The position numbers and the translations under genes are program-made. The notes beneath the pieces were generated by a model. That model was not told the origin of the DNA. It ran no database searches and was given only the letters and a program-made list of their open reading frames with translations. This document shows positions 53,717 to 63,802 of a DNA stretch of 64,000 nt, piece by piece. Source of the stretch: Candidatus Eiseniibacteriota bacterium (lineage in GTDB: Bacteria > Eisenbacteria > RBG-16-71-46 > CAIMUX01 > VGJL01); assembly GCA_041946735.1 (NCBI GenBank), contig JBHGAY010000017.1:56009-120008 (forward strand), in the 5' to 3' direction. Within the stretch, counting starts at the first letter, position 1, and every line of letters begins with the position of its first letter.

Positions 53717-53799
53717 GCCTGTGTCTGCCCGGATCCCGGTCGGGAGCTCGTGAGCCGCGCGGGCGCCGGGTTTGAAAACGGGAACCGGACGAATGAATC

Positions 53800-53829
53800 T
53801 TGACGTCTCGAACGTGCGTTCGGTAATCT
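53800..53829 (+). promoter_or_regulatory. lexA promoter with an embedded GAAC-N4-GTTC SOS box
   Basis: TTGACG (53800-05), CGAACGTGCGTTCG (53809-22), TAATCT (53824-29). Confidence 0.75.
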
Positions 53830-53918
53830 GGAACAGGCAATCAGGGAACCGGACGGGGTGCGGCCCATCGAAGTCCCCAAGCCGGCTTCGCTCCGTCCGG
53901 TCCATACAGGAGGTTCCC

Positions 53919-54509
53919 ATGCGGTCCTTGACAAAACGGCAGCGCGAGATTCTCGACTACATCCTCGACACGATCGCGCAGGATGGACGCTTCCCCTCCT
54001 ACCGGGAAATCGGGGCGCACTTCGGGTTGACGTCGCCGGCGACGGTGAGCCAGCACCTGGAGGCGCTCGCCGCGAAGGGGGCGCTCAAGCGCAACGGCCG
54101 CTACTACACGCCGCATGATTCCCTCCGGCGCGACCTGGGCGTTCCCATCGTCGGTCGGGTCGCCGCGGGGAGTCCGATCACCGCCGTCGAGAACATCGAG
54201 GATCACGTGCGCTGGGAGCAGCTCGGCGGCGAGGGTCGCTTCGCGGTACGAGTGGTCGGCGACAGCATGATCGACGACGGCATCTGGGATGGAGATCTCG
54301 TGATCGTCGAGCCGCGGGACAACTTCCACTCGGGAGACCTCGTCGTCGCCTACGTTGGCGACGAGCACGAGGCGACCGTGAAGCGGTTCTACCCGCAGTC
54401 GAGCGAGATCGAGCTTCGCCCGGCGAACGCCGCCTACGAGCCGATGCGTTTCGATCCGAGCCAGGTGCATCTTGCGGGGAAGGTGACCGCCGTTCTCCGC
54501 CGGTACTAG
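53919..54509 (+). CDS. lexA: SOS repressor LexA
   Basis: LTKRQREIL wHTH, VAAG cleavage site, GDSM Ser and TVKR Lys; AGGAGG RBS. Confidence 0.93.
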   Translation: MRSLTKRQREILDYILDTIAQDGRFPSYREIGAHFGLTSPATVSQHLEALAAKGALKRNGRYYTPHDSLRRDLGVPIVGRVAAGSPITAVENIEDHVRWEQLGGEGRFAVRVVGDSMIDDGIWDGDLVIVEPRDNFHSGDLVVAYVGDEHEATVKRFYPQSSEIELRPANAAYEPMRFDPSQVHLAGKVTAVLRRY

Positions 54510-54804: not shown

Positions 54805-54880
54805 GCGCGCCGGTGTGACCTCGGTCATCGCCCCCCTTCCCCTCCGGGATCGATCCTGGAGCGGGAAAGGGGGCTTTTGC

Positions 54881-55627
54881 ATGTCGCTTCGCAAGGTCAT
54901 CCGGATCGACGAGGAGAAGTGCGACGGCTGCGGGGAGTGCGTCCCCGCCTGCGTCGAAGGGGCGATTCGCGTCATCGATGGAAAGGCCCGGCTGCTCCGG
55001 GAAGATTACTGCGACGGCCTGGGCGCCTGCCTGGGCCACTGCCCGCAAGGGGCGATCACGATCGAGGAGAGGGAAGCCGACGCGTTCGACGAGGAGGCGG
55101 TGCGGGCGCATCTCGCCTCGATCGCCGCGGTGCATCCCGGCCTCTCCTGTCCCGGGTCGCAGCCTCGCACCTTCGACCGGCCGGTCCCGGTTGCCGCCGC
55201 TCCGGTCGCGCCAAGTGTCGTTGCTGAGGGGGAGGCGATGGGGGAGCTGTCGCACTGGCCGGTGCAGCTCCACCTGATCTCGCCCCACTCTCCCGTCTAC
55301 CGCGGCGCGGATCTCCTGCTTGCCGCCGACTGCGCGGCCTTCGCCCGCGGGGACTTCCACCGCCGGTTCCTTGCCGGGCACGCCCTCGCCATCGCCTGCC
55401 CGAAGCTCGACGACCCAGCCGGCTATGTCGAGAAGCTGTCGGCCCTGCTGGCCCCCGGCATGGCGCGCTCGCTCACGATCGTCCGGATGCAGGTGCCTTG
55501 CTGCGGCGGCCTCGAGCGGCTCGCGGCGATCGCGGCGGAGCGGGCGGGCAGCCGCGTCCCGATCCGCTGCGTCGTGCTCGCTCCCGACGGGCGGATCTTG
55601 TCGGATACGAGCGAGAGCGAGAACTAG
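54881..55627 (+). CDS. 4Fe-4S dicluster domain protein
   Basis: CDGCGECVPAC, CDGLGACLGHCP, WPVQL, ACPKLD and MQVPCC motifs. Confidence 0.85.
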   Translation: MSLRKVIRIDEEKCDGCGECVPACVEGAIRVIDGKARLLREDYCDGLGACLGHCPQGAITIEEREADAFDEEAVRAHLASIAAVHPGLSCPGSQPRTFDRPVPVAAAPVAPSVVAEGEAMGELSHWPVQLHLISPHSPVYRGADLLLAADCAAFARGDFHRRFLAGHALAIACPKLDDPAGYVEKLSALLAPGMARSLTIVRMQVPCCGGLERLAAIAAERAGSRVPIRCVVLAPDGRILSDTSESEN

Positions 55628-55778: not shown

Positions 55779-56636
55779 CTATCGATACAGTCCCCGCACC
55801 TGGCCCCAGCTCACGTGGGACGTTGCAGTGGGCGAGCAGGGATTCGGATCGCAGTCATATTCCCACGGATTAGGCTCACCGCCCATAGCGATGCAGGTAT
55901 AGTCGTACAGCACCTGGCAGGAGCCGTCGTCGAAGCAACAAGCAACATCCTCATCCTGCGGGGGTATGCCACACCCATCTTCCCCGTTCAGGACGAAGAT
56001 CGTCTGCGAGTCGGGGAATCCGATGTCGCTCACGCCTACCGGTTCCGAGATGCCACAGTCCGGCGCGGCGATGTAAGCATCCTGGAAGGCGCCGGCATCG
56101 TTGGCGCCCGGGTAGAAGGAAACGAGGTCTGCCTCACCGGACGGGGCGTCGATAGCGACGACGAGGTCCGTCGCCTCACCGTCTTGGACGCAGAGGTAGC
56201 CGACCTGAACGTTGATCGTCGAGCCGACGTCGTTCGGGGTGAGGTCGATGCTGGTACGCCACACTTCTCTCAGGTTGGCGAAGAGGAACGGCGCGCCGTT
56301 GTCGATCTCGAAGAGGAAAAGGGTAACGCTCATGTTGCCCGAGAGGTACGAGACGCCGAAGTCCACGCTCTCCACCTGGAAGCTTTCGAGCCCGTGGTCG
56401 TCGTAGAGAAAGAAGCGGCGGAGAAACCAGTTCTGAGTCGTGTACGACCCGGCAACGCCGCAGGCGACCTGCGTGTCGCCGATCGTCGTGATGTCGTAGT
56501 TCTGGTAGACCTGCAGTCTGTCCTGCGGCGTCGTTTCGACCGAATACGACGGGTGATCCACCGTCAGAAACTCCGCGGCGCTTGCCCCGGACACGAGGAA
56601 CAGGATCCCCAGGGCAAGCAGGAACAGCGGCCTCAT
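55779..56636 (-). CDS. Secreted hypothetical protein (paralog A) with a Cys-rich module and SWGQVRGLYR tail
   Basis: Signal peptide; core nearly colinear with 56978..57715. Confidence 0.8.
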   Translation of the reverse strand: MRPLFLLALGILFLVSGASAAEFLTVDHPSYSVETTPQDRLQVYQNYDITTIGDTQVACGVAGSYTTQNWFLRRFFLYDDHGLESFQVESVDFGVSYLSGNMSVTLFLFEIDNGAPFLFANLREVWRTSIDLTPNDVGSTINVQVGYLCVQDGEATDLVVAIDAPSGEADLVSFYPGANDAGAFQDAYIAAPDCGISEPVGVSDIGFPDSQTIFVLNGEDGCGIPPQDEDVACCFDDGSCQVLYDYTCIAMGGEPNPWEYDCDPNPCSPTATSHVSWGQVRGLYR

Positions 56637-56977
56637 GGGCGGCTCCTGATTCTCGGGTCTCCGATCGGTCTGGACCGCTCGCCGTCGCACCCGGGGTACA
56701 CATTCGGTGAGGCGTCTTTGGCGCTCGATCGGAGAATCCCGGACCGGAAATGAAGGAACAGGATCGCGGCGAAGACCTCTCGGCCTCCGTCCTCTCCTTG
56801 GGAACGCTGACATTCTACGCGCTTCGCCGGGCCTTGTCTCTTCCGCTGGGGCGAGGGCGCTCGTTGGCGACGGCGGAGAGATGCGAAGAGGGGACCGGTC
56901 GCCCGGTCCCCTCGCAACTCGGTTTGGCTCCGCCGGCTGGGAAGTAAGGCCGGCCTTGCCGATTGCCGATCGGTTCC

Positions 56978-57715
56978 CTACCGGAACAGCCCCCGGACGG
57001 CCCCCCACGTCGTGGGCGTCGTCGCGACCGGCGGCGGCGGTGGGCCTCCTATGCCCGACTCTCCATTGACGACGAAGATGGTCTGAGAGTCAGGAAAGCC
57101 GATGTCGCTAACTGCCATCGGCTCGGGGACGTCGCAGTTCGCGGCCGCGATGTACGCATCCTGGAAGGCGCCCGCGTCATTAGCAGCCGGGTAGAAGGAG
57201 ACCAAGTTCGGTTCCCCGGACGGCGCCTCGATCGCGACGACCAGATCCTGGCCGATGCCATCGTACATCTCCGCCGAGAGCGGGACGTTGACGAGGAAGC
57301 CCACATCGTTCGGAGTCAGGTCTACCGACTCCCTGGTGATCTCCGTCATGTTGTCGAATCGGAACTCGGATCCGTTCGGGATCTGGAAGACGACGATGTC
57401 GACCGTCATGTCCCCGGTCAGAAAGGAGACGCCGAAGTCGATGCTCTGGACGATGATTCCGGGGTCCAGACCGTGATCCTCGTGGAGGTAGAAGCGTCGA
57501 AGGAACCAGTTCTGGGTCGTGTACGATCCGGCAACGCCGCAGGCGACCTGCGTGTCGCCGATCGTCGTGATGTCGTAGTTCTGATAGACCTGTACTGGTT
57601 CGCGCTGTGGCGGGTCGACCGCATAGCTCGGATGGTCGACCGTCAGTAACTCCGCGGCGCTCGCCCCGGAGGTTACCAGCAGCACTCCGAGGGCGAGAAG
57701 TACATACGGCCTCAT
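56978..57715 (-). CDS. Secreted hypothetical protein (paralog B) with a Pro linker and TWGAVRGLFR tail
   Basis: Signal peptide; shares VYQNYDITTIGDTQVACGVAGSYTTQNWFLRRF with paralog A; AGGAG RBS. Confidence 0.8.
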   Translation of the reverse strand: MRPYVLLALGVLLVTSGASAAELLTVDHPSYAVDPPQREPVQVYQNYDITTIGDTQVACGVAGSYTTQNWFLRRFYLHEDHGLDPGIIVQSIDFGVSFLTGDMTVDIVVFQIPNGSEFRFDNMTEITRESVDLTPNDVGFLVNVPLSAEMYDGIGQDLVVAIEAPSGEPNLVSFYPAANDAGAFQDAYIAAANCDVPEPMAVSDIGFPDSQTIFVVNGESGIGGPPPPPVATTPTTWGAVRGLFR

Positions 57716-57969
57716 GGCATCACTCCTGTGGTCGGGTCGCATGCGAGGATGTGGAGGTCCGGTCGGATGCTCGAGCTGCGCTCTCCTTCTGCCTCACTGC
57801 TCCAGGCACGACCCGCATTCGCACGTCGGAGAACTCGACCGGGTGGGCCCAGCGCCACGTCAATCCCGGTCGGATGGACGCCACCCATTCTACTCCTCCG
57901 CCCGAAACCCGTCGACGAGTGCAGGCCGGCTCCTTCCCGCCCCGCCGACCGTGACCGCAACACGGGTGA

Positions 57970-57998
57970 TTGACGCCGCCGGGGGATCGGAATACCAT
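57970..57998 (+). promoter_or_regulatory. Sigma70-type promoter for the tRNA/aaRS cluster
   Basis: TTGACG-17 nt-TACCAT. Confidence 0.6.
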
Positions 57999-58120
57999 TC
58001 TGTTGCTCGGTCTTCGATGACTTGCGAGGGCAAAGCGACAGCATGCGGCGGACGCACCGGGCTTTCCGCTGTTCGTTTCGTGCGCCTTCCCTGGGCCATC
58101 GCCCGAGTTCGAGTTTCGAT

Positions 58121-58370
58121 GCGCCCGTAGTTCAATGGTCAAGTCGTGGCGGTTTCGTCGCAAATGGTTCCGTTTGGGGCTCCCGTCCGCGTTGCGCACG
58201 GCGGAAGACGCCGGCGCTGAATAGCATCCTAGGTCGCTATTCAAACAAGAGCTGTGTGCCGCAAGGACGGATGGCTCCTGGGAAGTACGGCGCCGAGCGA
58301 TAAGCCTCCAGGCAAAGAACAGTGGACCTATAATCCACGAATGCGGGTTCGATTCCCGTCGGGCGTACCA
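58121..58370 (+). tRNA. tRNA with anticodon UAU (nominally Ile/AUA), interrupted in the D-loop by ~175 nt
   Basis: Acceptor GCGCCCG/CGGGCGT, discriminator A and encoded CCA; U8A9; D-stem GTTC (58130)/GAAC (58317); anticodon arm GTGGA-CCTATAA-TCCAC; 4-nt variable loop; T-arm GCGGG-TTCGATT-CCCGT; A15-U48 compatible. Confidence 0.85.
58140..58315 (+). ncRNA. Structured intervening sequence in the tRNA D-loop (possible intron, class uncertain)
   Basis: Hairpins 58194-58217 and 58218-58243; long-range pairings CCGTCC/GGACGG and GCTGTG/TACGGC. Boundaries are ambiguous by a few nt. Confidence 0.6.
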
Positions 58371-58414
58371 GGTTCCGCGGCCACCTCAAGAGTGCGGAGG
58401 CGCGCGACGACGTC

Positions 58415-59482
58415 ATGGACGACCCGGCCGCCATCGAGACATCGCAGGACGCTTATGTCGACGTGTCCGAGAGCTACGGACGAATCGCCTGCCTCCAGCG
58501 CCTCGTCCCGCTGATCCTCAGAACGAACGAGCACACCTACCTCTCCACCCCGGAACGCGACGATCCGCTGGGCGCCACGTGGCTGGAACTGGGATTGCGC
58601 GGTCTCGAGAATCTGCACGAGCGCTTCCGCCCGAAGGTCCGAAGAGCCGCCGTCATCGGCACCGGCAGTGGCCTCGACGCGATCGGGATCGCGGAGATCT
58701 TCTCGCCCGAATCGATCGTCGCCTCGGACATCCATCCCCGGGCCCTGGAGGCGGCACGCTGGAACGTCGCGGGCTACCTGCGTCCCGAGGTCCGGTGCGA
58801 GCTGCTCCGAAGTGATCTCTTCCGCGGGTACTCTTCAGACACCACCTTCGATCTCGTCTTCGAGAACCTTCCGAACGTTCCGGAGGACGAGGCGACGGGC
58901 GCGAGCCTCCTCGAAGGGATTCGCAGCTCGAGCTGCTACAACGCGTCGGCCTACGTGGCGGATCCGCTCGTCGATCGTCATCTCCTGACGCTGCACTACA
59001 ACTGCCTTCTCGAGGCGCGCGACCATCTGACTCCCGATGGCTGGGTCGTCTCGCTGATCGGCGGCCGGATCCCGTGGGCGGTCGTCGTGGAGACATTCCG
59101 CAAGGCGGGCTTCGGCGCGCGCGTCCTCGAGTTCGGGATCAAGACGCAGACCGAGCCCGGCATCGTCCTGGAAGGCTACGCGCGCGCGGAGGAGGATGGC
59201 TCTCCGCCGTTCCTGTACTACTACCCGCCCGAGTCCTGCCTGAATGCTCTCCCACGCGGGCGGGATGGACGCGGCGATGGCGCCGACCCAGCCGGCACGG
59301 TCGAGGAGGGGAACGCCGCCCTCGATGCGTTTCGCGTCAGCGCCCGCGAAGCGCTCGCGCTCCACCGCAGAGGAAAGAAGGTCTGCCACACCGTCTACGT
59401 CGTGGGGGGGCACGCCCTGGGGGGCCGCGTCGCTGGAGGGACGCCGGCAGCACGCGCGACACAGGCGCCGCCTGCGCAATGA
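58415..59482 (+). CDS. SAM methyltransferase resembling methionine S-methyltransferase (MmtN/MMT-like)
   Basis: Motif I VIGTGSG, SDIHP, SDL, ENLPNV, IGGRIP and C-terminal VSAREAL...CHTVYV. Family assignment is from recalled motif order. Confidence 0.65.
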   Translation: MDDPAAIETSQDAYVDVSESYGRIACLQRLVPLILRTNEHTYLSTPERDDPLGATWLELGLRGLENLHERFRPKVRRAAVIGTGSGLDAIGIAEIFSPESIVASDIHPRALEAARWNVAGYLRPEVRCELLRSDLFRGYSSDTTFDLVFENLPNVPEDEATGASLLEGIRSSSCYNASAYVADPLVDRHLLTLHYNCLLEARDHLTPDGWVVSLIGGRIPWAVVVETFRKAGFGARVLEFGIKTQTEPGIVLEGYARAEEDGSPPFLYYYPPESCLNALPRGRDGRGDGADPAGTVEEGNAALDAFRVSAREALALHRRGKKVCHTVYVVGGHALGGRVAGGTPAARATQAPPAQ

Positions 59483-60207
59483 CCGCGCCCGAACCGTTCA
59501 CCGATCCCGAAGCGATCGACCGGATGGAGGCGGAGCACAGGCCGCTCTGGTCGGCGTTCGTCCGCAGCTTCTCCCCCCTACTCTTTCCCGGCGCCCGTGT
59601 GCTGGATTTCGGCTGCAGCGGAGGGGGACTGCTCCGCCTGCTGTTCGAACGGCAGACGGAAGGGGCCATCCCGGAGATCGCGCTCGCCGCCGGCATCGAC
59701 GTCGACGAGCCGGCGATGAGAACCGTCCTTGCCCGCGCTGCCGGTCGTCCTCCACGGGATCTCCCGATCGTCTTCACAACGGGGCGCCTCGCCGCCTTCC
59801 CGGAGCAGTTCGACCTGGTCGTCTCGCACGAGGTGGTCTATCTCCTTCCGGATCTCCGCGAGACATTTGCGGAGATCCGAGCGGCGCTCCGCGATCAAGG
59901 GCACTTCTGCTTCACGACCGGGTGCCACACGGACAATCCGCTCTTCGCGCGATGGAGGCGCTCGCTCGAGGCCGAAGGCGTCGCCGTCCATGCGCGTGCC
60001 GCGGACGCGTACGAGCGGGCGTTGCGCGATGCCGGATTCATCGAGATCCGAGACGACCGGCTGCGCCTGCGCGAAGAGGAGTATGCCGCCTGGGCCGCAG
60101 CCCGTGGCACGGCGCAACCGAATCCCGCCTGGTTCGCGAGCTCGGCCGAGGAGCGCGACTATTACGTCCGAACCGGCAAGCTGCTTCTCACCGCGCAGAG
60201 GGGGTGA
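59479..60207 (+). CDS. Class I SAM-dependent methyltransferase
   Basis: VLDFGCSGG, GIDV and FDLVVSHEVVYLL motifs; ATGA-coupled to the upstream gene. Confidence 0.85.
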   Translation: MTAPEPFTDPEAIDRMEAEHRPLWSAFVRSFSPLLFPGARVLDFGCSGGGLLRLLFERQTEGAIPEIALAAGIDVDEPAMRTVLARAAGRPPRDLPIVFTTGRLAAFPEQFDLVVSHEVVYLLPDLRETFAEIRAALRDQGHFCFTTGCHTDNPLFARWRRSLEAEGVAVHARAADAYERALRDAGFIEIRDDRLRLREEEYAAWAAARGTAQPNPAWFASSAEERDYYVRTGKLLLTAQRG

Positions 60208-62393
60208 TGAGGATGGGCGGGTACGATCCGGCGGCGATCGAGCCCAAGTGGCAGGAGCGCTGGCGGGAGAGACGCACCTTCGAGAGCCGGCGCGACCCGG
60301 CGCGCCCGAAATACTACGTGTACAATCCAGCGCCTTACGTCACCGGCGCGCTGCACATGGGACATGTCCGCAACTACGCCTGCGGGGACTTCGTGGCGAA
60401 GGTCCACCGTCTGAAGGGGGACGCGGTCCTCTACACGATCGGCTTCGACGCGTTCGGCCTGCCGACGGAGATGGCGGCGATCCGCAACTCCGTCGCGCCG
60501 GAGCAGTGGACCGCGGACTGCCTCGAGCAAATGCGGCGGCAGCTCTCCGCTCTCGGATGCGGCTTCGACTGGTCGCGCTCCTTCCTGACCTGCGAGCCGA
60601 AGTACTACCGGTGGACGCAATGGATCTTCCTGCAGCTCCATGAGAGAGGGCTGATCTACAGCACGGTCGGGACGACCCTATGGTGTCCGGAGTGCGACAC
60701 CTCGCTCGCGCGCGCGCAGGCGGAGGAGGGGCGCTGCTGGATCTGCGGCTCGACGGTCGAGCGCCGCCGGGTGCGCGAGTGGATGCTGCGCGTCTCCCCT
60801 TACCTGGGGCGCCTGCTGCGCGGCCTCGAGAAGACCACCGACCGCAGCGGTCTCGCAGAGCAGGGACAGGGCAACCTGATCGGCCGCCAGGACGGTTTCG
60901 CCGTGCAGCTCCGCGTCGAGGGGGTGAGGGAGCCGCTCACTGCGTTTCTCCCCGACGGCGCCTCGTGGGCGGCGCCGTGCGTGATCGCCGTCGACGCGCG
61001 GGACGAGGAAACGCTGGCCGCTCTCGCCGCGGGCGGGGGCGGGGGTGAGGAGGGAGCGCCGATCGCCCCGGCGCTCGCCGATGCGGTGCTCGCCGCCCTG
61101 CCGGGCGCCCGGCTGACCGGCTGGATCGCGGTCGAGGAGCGGACGGGGAGGCGTCTGCCCGTCGTCGTCGCCCCGCTCTCCGATCCGGCCTTTCTCGATC
61201 AGCCGCTCGTCGTGCCCCTCGCGCAGGCGGCCGGCGAGGGCGCCGCGCCACGGTCGCCAGCGCCGGGCTTCCCGCCCATGACCGTCTACCGGCAGAAGGA
61301 CTTCTCGATCTCGCGCCAGCGGCTCTGGGGCACGCCGATCCCGATCGTCCTTTGCGAGACGTGCGGCGAGGTGCCGGTGCCGGTCGAGGAGCTTCCGGTC
61401 GTGGCGCCCGGGCTCACGATCGATCCGGGCACCGGCCGCCTGCGCCGCGAAGGGGATTCCTGGGACCTCCGGCGATGCCCGCGCTGCGGAGCGCCGGCGC
61501 GGCTCGACCCGCAGGTGATGGACTGCCACATGGACTCCATCTGGCATCCGTTCCGCCCATGCGCGCTCGAATCGACCGAGTTCCTCTTCGATCCCGACGA
61601 GGTCCTCTACTGGATGCCGGCGGACATCATCCAGTTCGGCCGCGACGTGATTCCCTTCATGCTCGATCTGCGCTTCTTCTCCTACTTCCTGCACGATCTC
61701 GGGCTCGTTCCGTTCGAGGAGTTCTGCACGGAGGTGCTGGCGCACGGGCTGATCCTTCACGAGGGACGGAAGATGAGCAAGCACCTCGGGAACGCCGTCA
61801 CGCCCGAGGAGGCGATCGAGCGGTTCGGCGCCGACGCGCTGCGCTTCTACGCCCTCGCGCACGAGGAGCCGAAGAGCGACTGCCGCTGGTCGGAGGAGGG
61901 GATCGATCGCTACCGCGCGCTCCTCGCAACCTTCCATGGCCTCGTCGCATCGGCTCCGGCGGTGGAACGACCGGCCCCGCCACCCGCGACGAGGGACCGG
62001 GAGCCGGGGGCGCGCCGCAGCAAATACGCGAACGTATTCCTGAAGAAAGTCGCCCGAGAGATCGAGGGGCTCGCTTCGTACGTGGAGGAGACGCGGTACG
62101 ACCGCTACGCGAGCGGCGTCGCCCGGATGATCTCCTCGATGGAGTTCTTCGCGACGAACCATCTCGCCCGCGAGCGCGATCCTCACGTTTCGCGCCTGTG
62201 GCGATCGATCCTCGAAGACGCCGTGGCGTATCTCGCTCCCATCGCCCCGCACCTGGCCGAGGAGTGCTGGGAGATGCTGGGGAAGGAGGACTCGATCTTC
62301 TCCGCCGCGCGCCCGCCGGCGGTCACCGCACAGGCGATCCGGGACTTGCTCGAGGACTCGCGCCACATCACGACCCAGGGAAGGGACGCATGA
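60207..62393 (+). CDS. Divergent leucyl-tRNA synthetase paralog (class Ia)
   Basis: IEPKWQERW, LHMGH, FDAFGLP, YYRWTQWIF, SRQRLWGTPIP, KMSK and PIAPHLAEE motifs; ~728 aa. Confidence 0.9.
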   Translation: MRMGGYDPAAIEPKWQERWRERRTFESRRDPARPKYYVYNPAPYVTGALHMGHVRNYACGDFVAKVHRLKGDAVLYTIGFDAFGLPTEMAAIRNSVAPEQWTADCLEQMRRQLSALGCGFDWSRSFLTCEPKYYRWTQWIFLQLHERGLIYSTVGTTLWCPECDTSLARAQAEEGRCWICGSTVERRRVREWMLRVSPYLGRLLRGLEKTTDRSGLAEQGQGNLIGRQDGFAVQLRVEGVREPLTAFLPDGASWAAPCVIAVDARDEETLAALAAGGGGGEEGAPIAPALADAVLAALPGARLTGWIAVEERTGRRLPVVVAPLSDPAFLDQPLVVPLAQAAGEGAAPRSPAPGFPPMTVYRQKDFSISRQRLWGTPIPIVLCETCGEVPVPVEELPVVAPGLTIDPGTGRLRREGDSWDLRRCPRCGAPARLDPQVMDCHMDSIWHPFRPCALESTEFLFDPDEVLYWMPADIIQFGRDVIPFMLDLRFFSYFLHDLGLVPFEEFCTEVLAHGLILHEGRKMSKHLGNAVTPEEAIERFGADALRFYALAHEEPKSDCRWSEEGIDRYRALLATFHGLVASAPAVERPAPPPATRDREPGARRSKYANVFLKKVAREIEGLASYVEETRYDRYASGVARMISSMEFFATNHLARERDPHVSRLWRSILEDAVAYLAPIAPHLAEECWEMLGKEDSIFSAARPPAVTAQAIRDLLEDSRHITTQGRDA

Positions 62394-62409
62394 CTGGGAG
62401 AAGGGACGC

Positions 62410-63222
62410 ATGACGCAGACCGTATTCGATCGATTTCGATCCGCCTTGGCGTCCGGAATCGAACGGCTGGAACGCGCCCGTCGGAGCGGCGAGCCGCGCG
62501 CGCTCTGGCGGGAGGCTCTCGCGCTCGAGCACGTGATCCAGTGCGACCTCCTCTCCCTTCGAGAGGAAGAGGAGGTGATCGGCACGCTCGAGCCCGAGCG
62601 AGTCGCCCTCTGTCGCGACATCTTCTGCGTCCTCGAGACGCAGATCGAGAGCAGCTTCGCCGCGATGGCGCTGTCCGGCGGCGACGCGGTCCTCGCGCGG
62701 ATCGACGGGATCACCGAGAACTACCTGGTCCGCTACGAGGAGCTGGCGCGAAAGGAGATCGCGCTCGCCGGGATGACGGGGCGCGATCGCGTTCTGTTCA
62801 TCGGGAGCGGCCCGCTGCCGATCACCGCGATCGAGTATCACCGTCAGACGGGGTGCGAGGTGGACTGCGTGGACTTCTCGCCGCAGGCGATCGACACCTC
62901 GCACGAAGTGCTAGGGCGCCTGCGGCTCGATTCGGCCATCCACCCGCAACTTCTCCGCGGCGAGAACGTCCCCGCCGGCGGCTGGACGGTCGTCCTGGTC
63001 GGTGTGCTCGCCCGTCCGAAGAGGGAGATCTTCGAGAATCTCGCGAGGGTGTGCCCGGACGGCTGCCGCGTTCTCGCGCGGACCACGTTCGGCCTCCGCG
63101 GCCTGATCTACGAACCGATGGGGTGGGATCCCGCGAGCCTCGGCGGCTTCCGGATGACCGGCACGAACGAGGCGCGAGCGGACCAGATCATCTCGGCGAT
63201 CGGCTACGTGCTGGGGCGTTGA
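62410..63222 (+). CDS. Nicotianamine synthase-like aminocarboxypropyl transferase
   Basis: Y..RYEELARKE, VLFIGSGPLPITAI and RTTFGLRGLIYEP motifs. Confidence 0.8.
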   Translation: MTQTVFDRFRSALASGIERLERARRSGEPRALWREALALEHVIQCDLLSLREEEEVIGTLEPERVALCRDIFCVLETQIESSFAAMALSGGDAVLARIDGITENYLVRYEELARKEIALAGMTGRDRVLFIGSGPLPITAIEYHRQTGCEVDCVDFSPQAIDTSHEVLGRLRLDSAIHPQLLRGENVPAGGWTVVLVGVLARPKREIFENLARVCPDGCRVLARTTFGLRGLIYEPMGWDPASLGGFRMTGTNEARADQIISAIGYVLGR

Positions 63223-63235
63223 GGCGGGCGGGGCG

Positions 63236-63802
63236 TCAGAGGTCCAGCTCGTCGCTGACCCCCTGCATCGCGACCAGCGCAATCCCCGCGAACTCGGCCG
63301 TATCGATGCCGATCTCCTCGCACTCCCGGATCGTCTCCCGGTTCACGCTCGAGGCGAACCGGTCGTCCTTGATCCGCTTCGCGACCGACTTCGCTTTCAC
63401 GGAGGCGAGCTTCTTGTCCGGCAGGATCAAGGCGGTCGAGACGATGAGGCCCGTGATCGTCTCCCCGGCGGCGAGGGCGTGATCGAGACGGCTCTGGCGC
63501 GGTTCGGTCGTCGATAGCCGGTTGTGCCGGCGGATGGCGGCAACGACCTCCGGCTCCACCCCGTTCGCCTCGAGGATCGGCGCGCTCCGGCTGCCGTGAA
63601 CGGCAGGATCGGCCTGCGTGATCTCGATGTCGATGTCGTGCAGGAGTCCGGCGATTCCCCACACGTCCGGGTCCTCGCCGAGGCGCGCCGCGAGAGCGCG
63701 GAGCACCGCCTCGGACGCGAGGCTGTGTTTGAGGATTCTCGGGTCGGCGACGTGCTGCCGGAGTAGCGCCAGCGCCTTCTCACGATCGATGCCCGCGGAC
63801 AT
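63236..63802 (-). CDS. HDIG/HD-domain hydrolase
   Basis: KHSLASE, GLLHDID, RRHN and FASSVNRE motifs. Confidence 0.85.
   Translation of the reverse strand: MSAGIDREKALALLRQHVADPRILKHSLASEAVLRALAARLGEDPDVWGIAGLLHDIDIEITQADPAVHGSRSAPILEANGVEPEVVAAIRRHNRLSTTEPRQSRLDHALAAGETITGLIVSTALILPDKKLASVKAKSVAKRIKDDRFASSVNRETIRECEEIGIDTAEFAGIALVAMQGVSDELDL

Follow-up and report, generated by a model that had tools for sequence, protein, structure and literature searches.

A conserved tRNA(UAU)-synthetase-SAM-enzyme cassette linked to site-specific ATA codons in secreted proteins: a candidate pyrrolysine-style system at a sense codon

To our knowledge, only two natural additions to the genetic code are known, selenocysteine and pyrrolysine, and both are placed on stop codons. 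The pyrrolysine system consists of a dedicated tRNA (pylT), its synthetase (pylS) and accessory enzymes (pylBCD), and its codon is an in-frame UAG in methylamine methyltransferase genes. In this work, we describe a locus found in a 64,000-nucleotide (nt) stretch of DNA, called the window below, from a Candidatus Eiseniibacteriota bacterium (assembly GCA_041946735.1, contig JBHGAY010000017.1, positions 56,009 to 120,008 of the forward strand). On the plus strand, positions 57970-63222 hold a promoter-like site, a split gene for a tRNA with the anticodon UAU, genes for two methyltransferases (MTase1 and MTase2) dependent on S-adenosylmethionine (SAM), a gene for an aminoacyl-tRNA synthetase (aaRS) derived from leucyl-tRNA synthetase (LeuRS), and a nicotianamine synthase (NAS)-like gene. 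As in the pyrrolysine system, a private tRNA, a synthetase and accessory enzymes are gathered in one locus, nearby client genes carry a particular codon at one constant place, and this codon also retains its normal meaning, which makes its decoding ambiguous. In contrast, the codon is here the sense codon AUA and not a stop codon, the synthetase is a class Ia, LeuRS-derived enzyme in place of PylRS, a NAS-like enzyme and two methyltransferases stand where the pyrrolysine system has PylBCD, the tRNA gene carries an insert in its D-loop, and the clients are secreted beta-sandwich proteins with the site at the junction of domain and tail rather than in an active site. No homology to pyl genes was seen in Pfam/NCBIfam-type profile searches of the window proteins. 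We consider it somewhat probable that the cassette is a pyrrolysine-style system which places a special, probably SAM-derived residue at AUA.

Other described systems share particular traits with this locus. Bacterial AUA codons are decoded by tRNA-Ile2(CAU) with lysidine (TilS) or, in Mycoplasma mobile and a few other bacteria, by tRNA-Ile(UAU). The anticodon described here also reads AUA, and UAU is a natural anticodon in those few bacteria; however, their UAU tRNAs are charged with isoleucine by IleRS and replace TilS, whereas the present host has TilS, tRNA-CAU and IleRS together, the synthetase paired with the tRNA is a LeuRS paralog, and the tRNA itself is closer to tRNA-Lys/Arg than to tRNA-Ile or tRNA-Leu. 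The 'deliberate mistranslation' pairs tRNA-ProX/ProRSx of Streptomyces and rare-codon control by bldA (UUA) provide, respectively, an anomalous tRNA with a synthetase paralog and a rare codon read by a single special tRNA, with selected genes affected. Those systems insert standard amino acids and are not known to have linked SAM enzymes or one conserved codon position in a client family. The LeuRS of M. mobile (PDB 3ziu, 637 aa) is a bacterial-type enzyme without a functional CP1 editing domain, as is the synthetase of the cassette, but it is a housekeeping enzyme with a normal leucine pocket; in the cassette enzyme both pocket motifs are rewritten, and a canonical LeuRS coexists with it in a related genome. 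Finally, tRNA introns include bacterial group I introns in anticodon loops and archaeal bulge-helix-bulge introns at non-canonical sites, the D-loop among them. The likeness consists in a structured intervening RNA within a tRNA gene, the exons of which fold into an ordinary cloverleaf, while the present insert lies in a D-loop in a bacterium, matches no group I model of Rfam, and is not conserved in sequence between genera.

The window is the final 64 kb of contig C9 in a 4.9-Mb assembly (G000; 68% GC, 94.8% complete). The DNA context of the cassette is visible at two further loci, one in a genome of the same family and another genus (G004) and one on a metagenome contig (L110). The five elements, namely the interrupted tRNA(UAU), MTase1, MTase2, aaRS and NAS-like genes, occur in identical order at 3/3 loci. 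In this respect the locus is organised like a pyrrolysine-type cassette, in which a tRNA and a synthetase of its own are kept together with accessory enzymes. The original prediction had described promoter, interrupted tRNA and the four genes on one strand with overlapping stop/start junctions, and all of these are present, with corrections (Table 1). Two promoter-like sites were found, compared with 0.1 expected in shuffled sequences, and TTGAC(G/A) boxes, read by eye, also precede the tRNA in G004 and L110. The cassette is not an artefact of assembly, because a contig from an independent study (run X2) spans 57900-58972, including the whole interrupted tRNA gene, with 0 differences.

Table 1. 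Features of the cassette and of the adjacent client genes in the window
Feature	Position	Strand	Details
Promoter-like site TTGACG-17-TACCAT	57970..57998	+	~120 nt upstream of the tRNA; 9/12 consensus matches
Second, divergent promoter-like site	57915-57887	-	faces the client genes
tRNA(UAU) 5' piece	58121..58142	+	acceptor 5' strand GCGCCCG, U8 A9, D-stem GUUC, D-loop start AAUGGUCAA
Structured D-loop insert, 174 nt	58143..58316	+	about position 20/21; long basal stem, branched top
tRNA(UAU) 3' piece	58317..58371	+	D-stem GAAC, anticodon arm, T arm UUCGAUU, acceptor 3' strand, A73, CCA
MTase1	58415..59482	+	355 aa
MTase2	59479..60207	+	242 aa; ATGA overlap with MTase1
LeuRS-derived aaRS	60207..62393	+	728 aa; TGATG overlap with MTase2
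NAS-like gene	62410..63222	+	270 aa
Client secA	56978..57715	-	signal peptide, ~200-aa beta-sandwich, Pro-rich linker, C-terminal TTWGAVRGLFR
secA single ATA codon	codon 222; 57050-57052 (+ strand numbering)	-	
Client secB, secA paralog	55779..56636	-	Cys-rich module after ATA, then SWGQVRGLYR
secB single ATA codon	codon 224; 55965-55967 (+ strand numbering)	-	

Linkage was also seen beyond these loci. When the co-occurrence of the aaRS with the UAU tRNA, the methyltransferases and the NAS-like gene was followed up, as had been proposed with the original prediction, the cassette was found at the three loci above, and the aaRS and NAS-like genes were placed on one contig in 9/13 members of the aaRS family. 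Three of these linkages were seen directly and six were deduced from both genes lying on contigs of identical size (30086, 377476, 1295897, 8519, 72097 and 93194). The remaining four aaRS clusters are on contigs of 5-15 kb, where nothing contradicts linkage. The match lists of MTase1 agree with three contig sizes also shown by the aaRS or members of its clusters (377476, 8519 and 7766). The cassette is rare: MTase1 was found in only 2/206 genomes of the phylum, G004 alone among 40 relatives has the LeuRS paralog (47-49% identity), and a back-translated YNPAPYxTGxLHxGH pattern identified a single locus, L110, in metagenome contigs. A pattern search of genome contigs with the aaRS alignment was uninformative, as its patterns also fit canonical LeuRS, and the 80 loci kept were ordinary leuS genes.

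The adjacent ATA-containing genes pointed out in the original prediction, the clients secA and secB with one ATA codon each, grew into the strongest evidence, a site-specific ATA that tracks the cassette. In G000, ATA accounts for 563 of ~1.28 million codons (0.44 per 1000, ~1% of Ile codons); 2398/2822 open reading frames (ORFs) are without it, and so are the four cassette genes. In the complete client copies adjacent to the cassettes, ATA falls in one aligned column in 7/7, and 6/7 have no further ATA. The aligned position is the last residue of the client fold, ahead of the linker and the C-terminal motif. The codon is not a stop, since ATA is Ile in translation table 11 and the client frames are open under that table.

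The clients belong to a secreted beta-sandwich family that flanks the cassette at 3/3 loci; in G004 seven tandem copies follow the NAS gene, and in L110 the family is likewise found after NAS. A model built from a 58-sequence alignment is a beta-sandwich (pLDDT 93) with likeness to lectins and carbohydrate-binding modules (CBMs). Its best structural likeness has Z 12.5, to the lectin-like domain of Cwp84 (VIA-align), and indicates a general beta-sandwich, lectin and CBM likeness only. Foldseek against the PDB gave no match for the model at E <= 0.001, and the client proteins had no matches in Pfam and NCBIfam. An earlier AlphaFold model from 7 sequences (pLDDT 48.8) was unusable and was set aside. 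According to the structural matches the fold ends at residues 217-225, and the ATA residue is number 222 in the modelled G004 copy. After the ATA there is a Pro-rich linker or a Cys-rich CC...CDPNPC module, followed by (S/T)WGx(I/V)(K/R)xx(Y/F)R (e.g., TWGxxKxxYR) and the stop codon.

From its sequence, this ending looks like a C-terminal sorting or processing signal typical of the phylum. In G000, ~69 ORFs of many families end in it, usually after P(V/T)(A/P)T; examples outside the window are C23:140923-142351, C8:50995-52585 and a minus-strand ORF of C34. Pattern matches occur irrespective of the cassette, with 63 in G004, 22 in G005, 25 in G003, 13 in G001 and 7 in G002. The Cys-rich module, approximately GACCxxDGxCxxxxxxxCxxxGGxxxGxGxxCDPNPC, was assigned to no family and is present in one to many copies between fold and C-terminal motif; it was seen in the secB tail (window 55779-56000), the L110 client, G001 L158 and many other places.

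To count the junction codon across genomes, a hidden Markov model of seven client sequences was used and all matches were aligned. An ATA at the junction was present in 4/10 client rows of G000, 9/14 of G004 and 1/1 of L110, that is, in 14/25 rows from cassette genomes, compared with 0/32 rows from 14 cassette-free genomes of the phylum, including close homologs in G005 and G001. A codon kept at a fixed position where the cassette is present, as in a system of the pyrrolysine kind, was thereby found. A similar pattern was obtained from the ORFs that end in the C-terminal motif. In G000, 10/69 of them have an ATA 12-70 codons before the stop, compared with 54/3007 other ORFs (odds ratio 9.3, p = 1e-6), and these 10 ORFs span several unrelated families. 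The ATA share of Ile codons is 10/173 (5.8%) in the motif ORFs and 0.7% of 8444 elsewhere (p = 6e-7). The shares of ACA, CCA, GTA, GGA and CTA shift only 1.0-1.4-fold in the motif ORFs, so that the ATA excess is not a matter of relaxed codon bias. In a cross-genome count based on one DNA pattern, which misses CGN-encoded Arg, an ATA 12-70 codons before the stop was found in 15/63 motif ORFs of G004 and 2/34 of G000, both with the cassette, and in 0/22 of G005, 0/25 of G003, 0/13 of G001 and 1/7 of G002, all without it. The pooled values are 17/97 and 1/67 (p = 7.5e-4); such p-values overstate independence, because the genomes are kin. The background ATA share of Ile codons in ORF bodies is 6/301 in G004, 4/60 in G005 and 2/137 in L110.

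The tRNA gene is encoded in two pieces separated by the insert. The anticodon arm reads GUGGA/CCUAUAA/UCCAC, with anticodon UAU and C33, and CCA is encoded in the gene. Once joined, the tRNA has a 7-bp acceptor stem with G1-U72, a D stem GUUC/GAAC and a D loop AAUGG...; a repeat of AAG at either end leaves the junction of the insert uncertain by ~3 nt. After in silico removal of the insert, ARAGORN calls tRNA(tat) at 3/3 loci, and a cloverleaf is formed with a 7-bp acceptor, D, anticodon and T arms, G18G19, T-loop UUCGAxx, discriminator and CCA. The tRNA arms also form in the minimum-free-energy fold of the whole 251-nt RNA (z = -2.9) and in the consensus fold. The anticodon UAU is invariant at 3/3 loci, while nearby loop and stem bases vary. 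The closest tRNAs of the same genome are tRNA-Lys/Arg (75-78% identity), and the private tRNA is unlike tRNA-Leu or the CAU tRNAs. With the Rfam tRNA model (RF00005), the G000 gene reaches 20.1 bits against a threshold of 29, through the 3' piece only; the 3' piece of G004 alone scores 35.0 bits, yet with a mispaired acceptor. A gapless pattern of the tRNA 3' half matched G004 alone among 206 genomes, and this is a weak negative, because the variable loop of G000 is 1 nt shorter and its own copy was left unmatched.

The D-loop inserts measure 174 nt in G000 and 229 and 231 nt in G004 and L110, and occupy the same position. In a comparison of two sequences only, a common branched fold was predicted for those of G004 and L110, with 6 compensatory pairs and none of its 84 predicted pairs broken; a long basal stem of similar kind is seen in the G000 insert. 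BLAST of the G000 insert against the other two found no sequence similarity (best E 1.3). The insert is single-copy in the G000 genome, and no Rfam family, group I intron models included, fitted it at permissive thresholds (window 57700-58500, E <= 10; G004 locus, E <= 5). The presence of the RNA ligase RtcB does not discriminate, because it is found in cassette and cassette-free genomes alike.

The synthetase scores 418.8 bits on the bacterial leuS model TIGR00396, under its cut-off of 548.4; this is still the best family match, and the enzyme is therefore LeuRS-derived. Its best PDB relative is the LeuRS of Thermus thermophilus (E 9e-133). Among 5.8 billion proteins, the clade comprises 12 full-length clusters and one fragment, with 45-62% identity and 535-1001 bits, and every protein outside it scores <= 450 bits. 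HMGH and KMSKH vary little or not at all across 13/13 aligned clade sequences, and the zinc cysteines are conserved. The editing-domain family PF13603, carried by the canonical rows, is in none of the 12 full-length clusters or the fragment, and the CP1 region is short, variable and without TTRPDT; the editing domain is degenerate or absent. The C-terminal tRNA-binding domain also appears to be missing: in the profile alignment, the match to 1h3n breaks off near residue 814-824 of 878, where the paralogs stop.

The leucine-pocket motifs have been rewritten in every paralog aligned. When compared with the canonical signatures MFPYPSG and GGxEHAxLHLLY, the motif NMFPYPSG has become YNPAPYVTG, and DQYIGGVEHAILHLLY has become DxIQFGRDxIPFxL, which resembles the MetRS motif of this genome more. 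Canonical LeuRS of the same class retain both motifs, which line the leucine pocket in the T. thermophilus LeuRS structure. The expectation of a separate canonical leuS held in G004, which carries the paralog and a canonical LeuRS (857-aa frame) side by side; in the 94.8%-complete G000 assembly no such gene was found, as discussed below. A 1049-aa ORF from 59244 was rejected as the start of the aaRS, being an artefact of an open upstream frame: LeuRS homology begins at its residue 327 (nt 60222). A second group of short LeuRS-like proteins (731-758 aa; P0018, P0020, P0036, P0042, P0063, P0107 and P0113) keeps PF13603 and forms a separate paralog family; one short PF13603-keeping protein, from Pseudolabrys taiwanensis, is annotated as 'class I tRNA ligase family protein'.

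Of the three SAM-dependent enzymes, the NAS-like protein is the one with a firm family assignment. By sequence it belongs to the nicotianamine synthase family of SAM-dependent 3-amino-3-carboxypropyl transferases, with 53.7 bits on PF03059 (cut-off 27.1; model positions 17-259 of 276), a structure match in the ESM Atlas of TM 0.87 to NAS clusters, and orthologs in G004 and L110. It is under the cut-off of the CntL equivalog (29.7 bits vs 350; NCBIfam, E 3.8e-7). MTase2 is a generic class-I SAM methyltransferase (PF13489, 53.2 bits vs 27), 44-46% identical to its G004 and L110 orthologs. MTase1, which also has orthologs in both, is of the HemK/PrmA/MTS type among class-I SAM methyltransferases and carries the motif ENLPNVP; all its family matches are sub-threshold. 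In the Atlas it lies near uncharacterised bacterial clusters, one fungal cluster and a cluster like plant methionine S-methyltransferase (feature score 0.97, TM 0.69), the last of which serves as a lead only. The uncharacterised clusters are mostly from Pseudomonadota. Distant relatives of MTase1 (P0140-P0148; 28-35% identity, ~320 aa, on contigs up to 210 kb) may belong to a related but different system.

The simplest account of these observations is a pyrrolysine-style system, because four things occur together: a dedicated tRNA whose anticodon is conserved, a dedicated synthetase that lacks editing and has a rebuilt pocket, three SAM enzymes, and a cassette-linked, site-specific ATA in the neighbouring genes. 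That logic, of a system with its own tRNA, its own synthetase, accessory enzymes and use of AUA, had been put forward from the start, and it passed every one of the computational checks proposed with it that was run. According to this account, the dedicated tRNA(UAU) would be transcribed with the operon from its own promoter, and the D-loop insert would be either removed (the host has RtcB ligase) or retained as an extra arm. The LeuRS-derived synthetase, with editing lost and the pocket rebuilt, would charge the private tRNA with a residue other than leucine. That residue is most likely made or completed from SAM, in free form or on the tRNA, by the two methyltransferases together with the NAS-like aminocarboxypropyl transferase, although one of the three may tailor the tRNA instead. 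The charged tRNA would then read AUA, the rarest sense codon of a 68%-GC genome. Clients keep one ATA exactly at the last residue of the folded domain, before the linker and the sorting-type motif; since the codon stands at the end of the fold and ahead of the tail, the special residue would mark the junction where, presumably, tail processing or attachment of the protein takes place.

A more specific version can be imagined, and we regard it as a doubtful guess. The cassette could supply a further natural amino acid in a sense codon, a SAM-derived residue (a candidate being an analogue of Met or Leu that carries a sulfonium or quaternary-ammonium group, e.g., S-methylmethionine-like), loaded by the rebuilt LeuRS onto the D-loop-expanded tRNA(UAU) and ending secreted lectin-like domains. 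Its reactive side chain might allow tail removal or covalent anchoring, e.g., by a lactone-forming cleavage like that of cyanogen bromide, with no sortase involved. This chemistry is speculation, suggested by the methionine S-methyltransferase likeness of MTase1, the MetRS-like pocket motif and the position of the site.

Three other explanations were weighed against a pyrrolysine-style system. The cassette might be a private AUA decoder that inserts a standard residue (Leu, Met or Ile), with SAM enzymes that tailor the tRNA (e.g., at U34 or A37) and a conserved ATA that acts as a kinetic or regulatory pause or gate at the domain boundary ahead of the sorting tail, in the manner of bldA and UUA; we think this possible and rather unlikely. 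RNA modifiers are known among HemK/MTS-type and class-I-fold aminocarboxypropyl enzymes, and the weak matches of MTase1 are to MTS, PrmA and HemK. A UAU anticodon needs restriction against AUG, Pro/Gly-rich stretches often follow the ATA, and two G004 genes (L216 and L251) have an ATA at the I/V position within the C-terminal motif, WGD[ATA]RALYR and WGA[ATA]RARYR, which hints that the AUA-encoded residue is tolerated at an aliphatic position and fits an Ile- or Leu-like residue. However, TilS and tRNA-CAU are present in cassette and cassette-free genomes; AUA would be decoded anyway, which speaks against a simple bldA-like gate. Moreover, cassette-free relatives have the same rare codon, yet not at the site (0/32; 1/67), and a standard residue leaves the rewritten pocket motifs and the private synthetase unexplained.

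Synthesis of a small molecule with the aminoacyl-tRNA as an activated carrier, for instance of a betaine or of a metallophore resembling opines or nicotianamine, the ATA link being coincidental, is in our view very unlikely. Enzymes of the NAS/CntL family do make metallophores, the CntL match mentioned above was recorded below its cut-off, and aaRS paralogs occur in natural-product clusters. On the other hand, the early remark that no nonribosomal peptide synthetase (NRPS), tRNA-dependent transferase or transporter is visible in the unit proved true of all three loci, none of which has a transferase, NRPS, cyclodipeptide synthase (CDPS), Fem-like gene or exporter. A carrier tRNA needs no conserved UAU anticodon, and the site-specific, cassette-linked ATA would have no explanation. 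The tRNA-dependent natural-product use that the original prediction had kept as an alternative is thus disfavoured, as it does not account for the codon pattern. An ordinary or decaying locus, with a housekeeping LeuRS and a tRNA pseudogene disrupted by the insert, would agree with the failure of tRNA finders to call the gene and with the absence of another LeuRS from the G000 assembly; we find it scarcely credible, because G004 holds both the paralog and a canonical LeuRS, the paralog is under the leuS cut-off and without the editing domain and, apparently, the C-terminal one, at three loci the tRNA is kept, its arms are intact and its insert shows compensatory changes, and the assembly is only 94.8% complete.

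Several observations count against a pyrrolysine-style system itself. The most direct concern the normal reading of AUA. As expected by the original prediction, separate ileS and tilS are present elsewhere in G000, which has TilS (169 bits), a canonical IleRS (715 bits) and a total of three CAU tRNAs; TilS is also found in G004, G005 and G001. One of the three tRNA-CAU genes is followed directly by tilS (G000:C6:8395-9281) and is probably tRNA-Ile2 with its modifying enzyme. With TilS, tRNA-CAU and IleRS available, AUA is also read as Ile by the standard route, cassette or not. The private tRNA must therefore compete at AUA, which would make decoding ambiguous not only at the client sites but also at some 550 ATA codons elsewhere. 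The cassette has no dedicated elongation factor, and no common hairpin or SECIS/PYLIS-like element was seen downstream of the ATA sites. The codon pattern is incomplete, the ATA being absent from 11/25 client rows of cassette genomes, and the cassette-free genome G002 has a locus (L288, G002:C282:1696-1985) with an ATA 20 codons before the stop, QVV[ATA]EGTTGTDRTTWG, which may have arisen by chance or be left over from a cassette since lost.

Further points of this kind concern the tRNA, the enzymes and the sample. ARAGORN reported 0 tRNAs in the unjoined DNA of the window, L029 and L110, so standard tools miss the gene; we know of no precedent for the maturation of a bacterial tRNA with a D-loop insert of 174-231 nt; and the G000 tRNA has C33 instead of the near-universal U33. 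The folds of the enzymes are ambiguous, as both the family type of MTase1 and the class-I-fold aminocarboxypropyl transferases include RNA-modifying members. In G000, a canonical leuS was not found with two NCBIfam models or by tblastn with the LeuRS of two relatives; we take this as an assembly gap, and the paralog may charge leucine in this organism. Sampling is thin, too: the three visible loci all come from related organisms, and the counts are not independent. As to the assembly, tRNA-Ile(GAU), tRNA-Ala(UGC) and tRNA-Cys are likewise missing from the ARAGORN list of G000, probably because rRNA operons and other parts were not assembled.

If a pyrrolysine-style system is indeed encoded here, it would represent a third route to an expanded code with a new principle, in which a naturally occurring cassette gives a rare sense codon a second reading at selected positions. 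It would provide an orthogonal pair, already made, for expanding the code at AUA, a goal of synthetic-biology engineering, supply a bacterial tRNA with a ~200-nt D-loop insertion, and give a handle on the processing of the class of secreted proteins with the TWGxxKxxYR tail. Even with a standard amino acid, private codon-specific decoding tied to one client position would be unusual. A full-text literature search, judged by titles and abstract openings and with subscription journals outside its coverage, found no paper on such a system of tRNA, synthetase and SAM enzymes, and a term search within the text of the Codetta screen paper (PMC8629427) found neither AUA nor a UAU anticodon.

Around the unit, the window contains genes for LexA (53772-54509), a 4Fe-4S dicluster protein (54815-55627) and an HDIG-domain protein (63236-63802, minus strand), none of which is kept beside the cassette in G004 or L110. 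The end of the contig coincides with the end of the window, just past the HD gene. ARAGORN also called a tRNA-Sec(TCA) gene at G000:C10:26695-26790, from which the organism probably uses selenocysteine as well.

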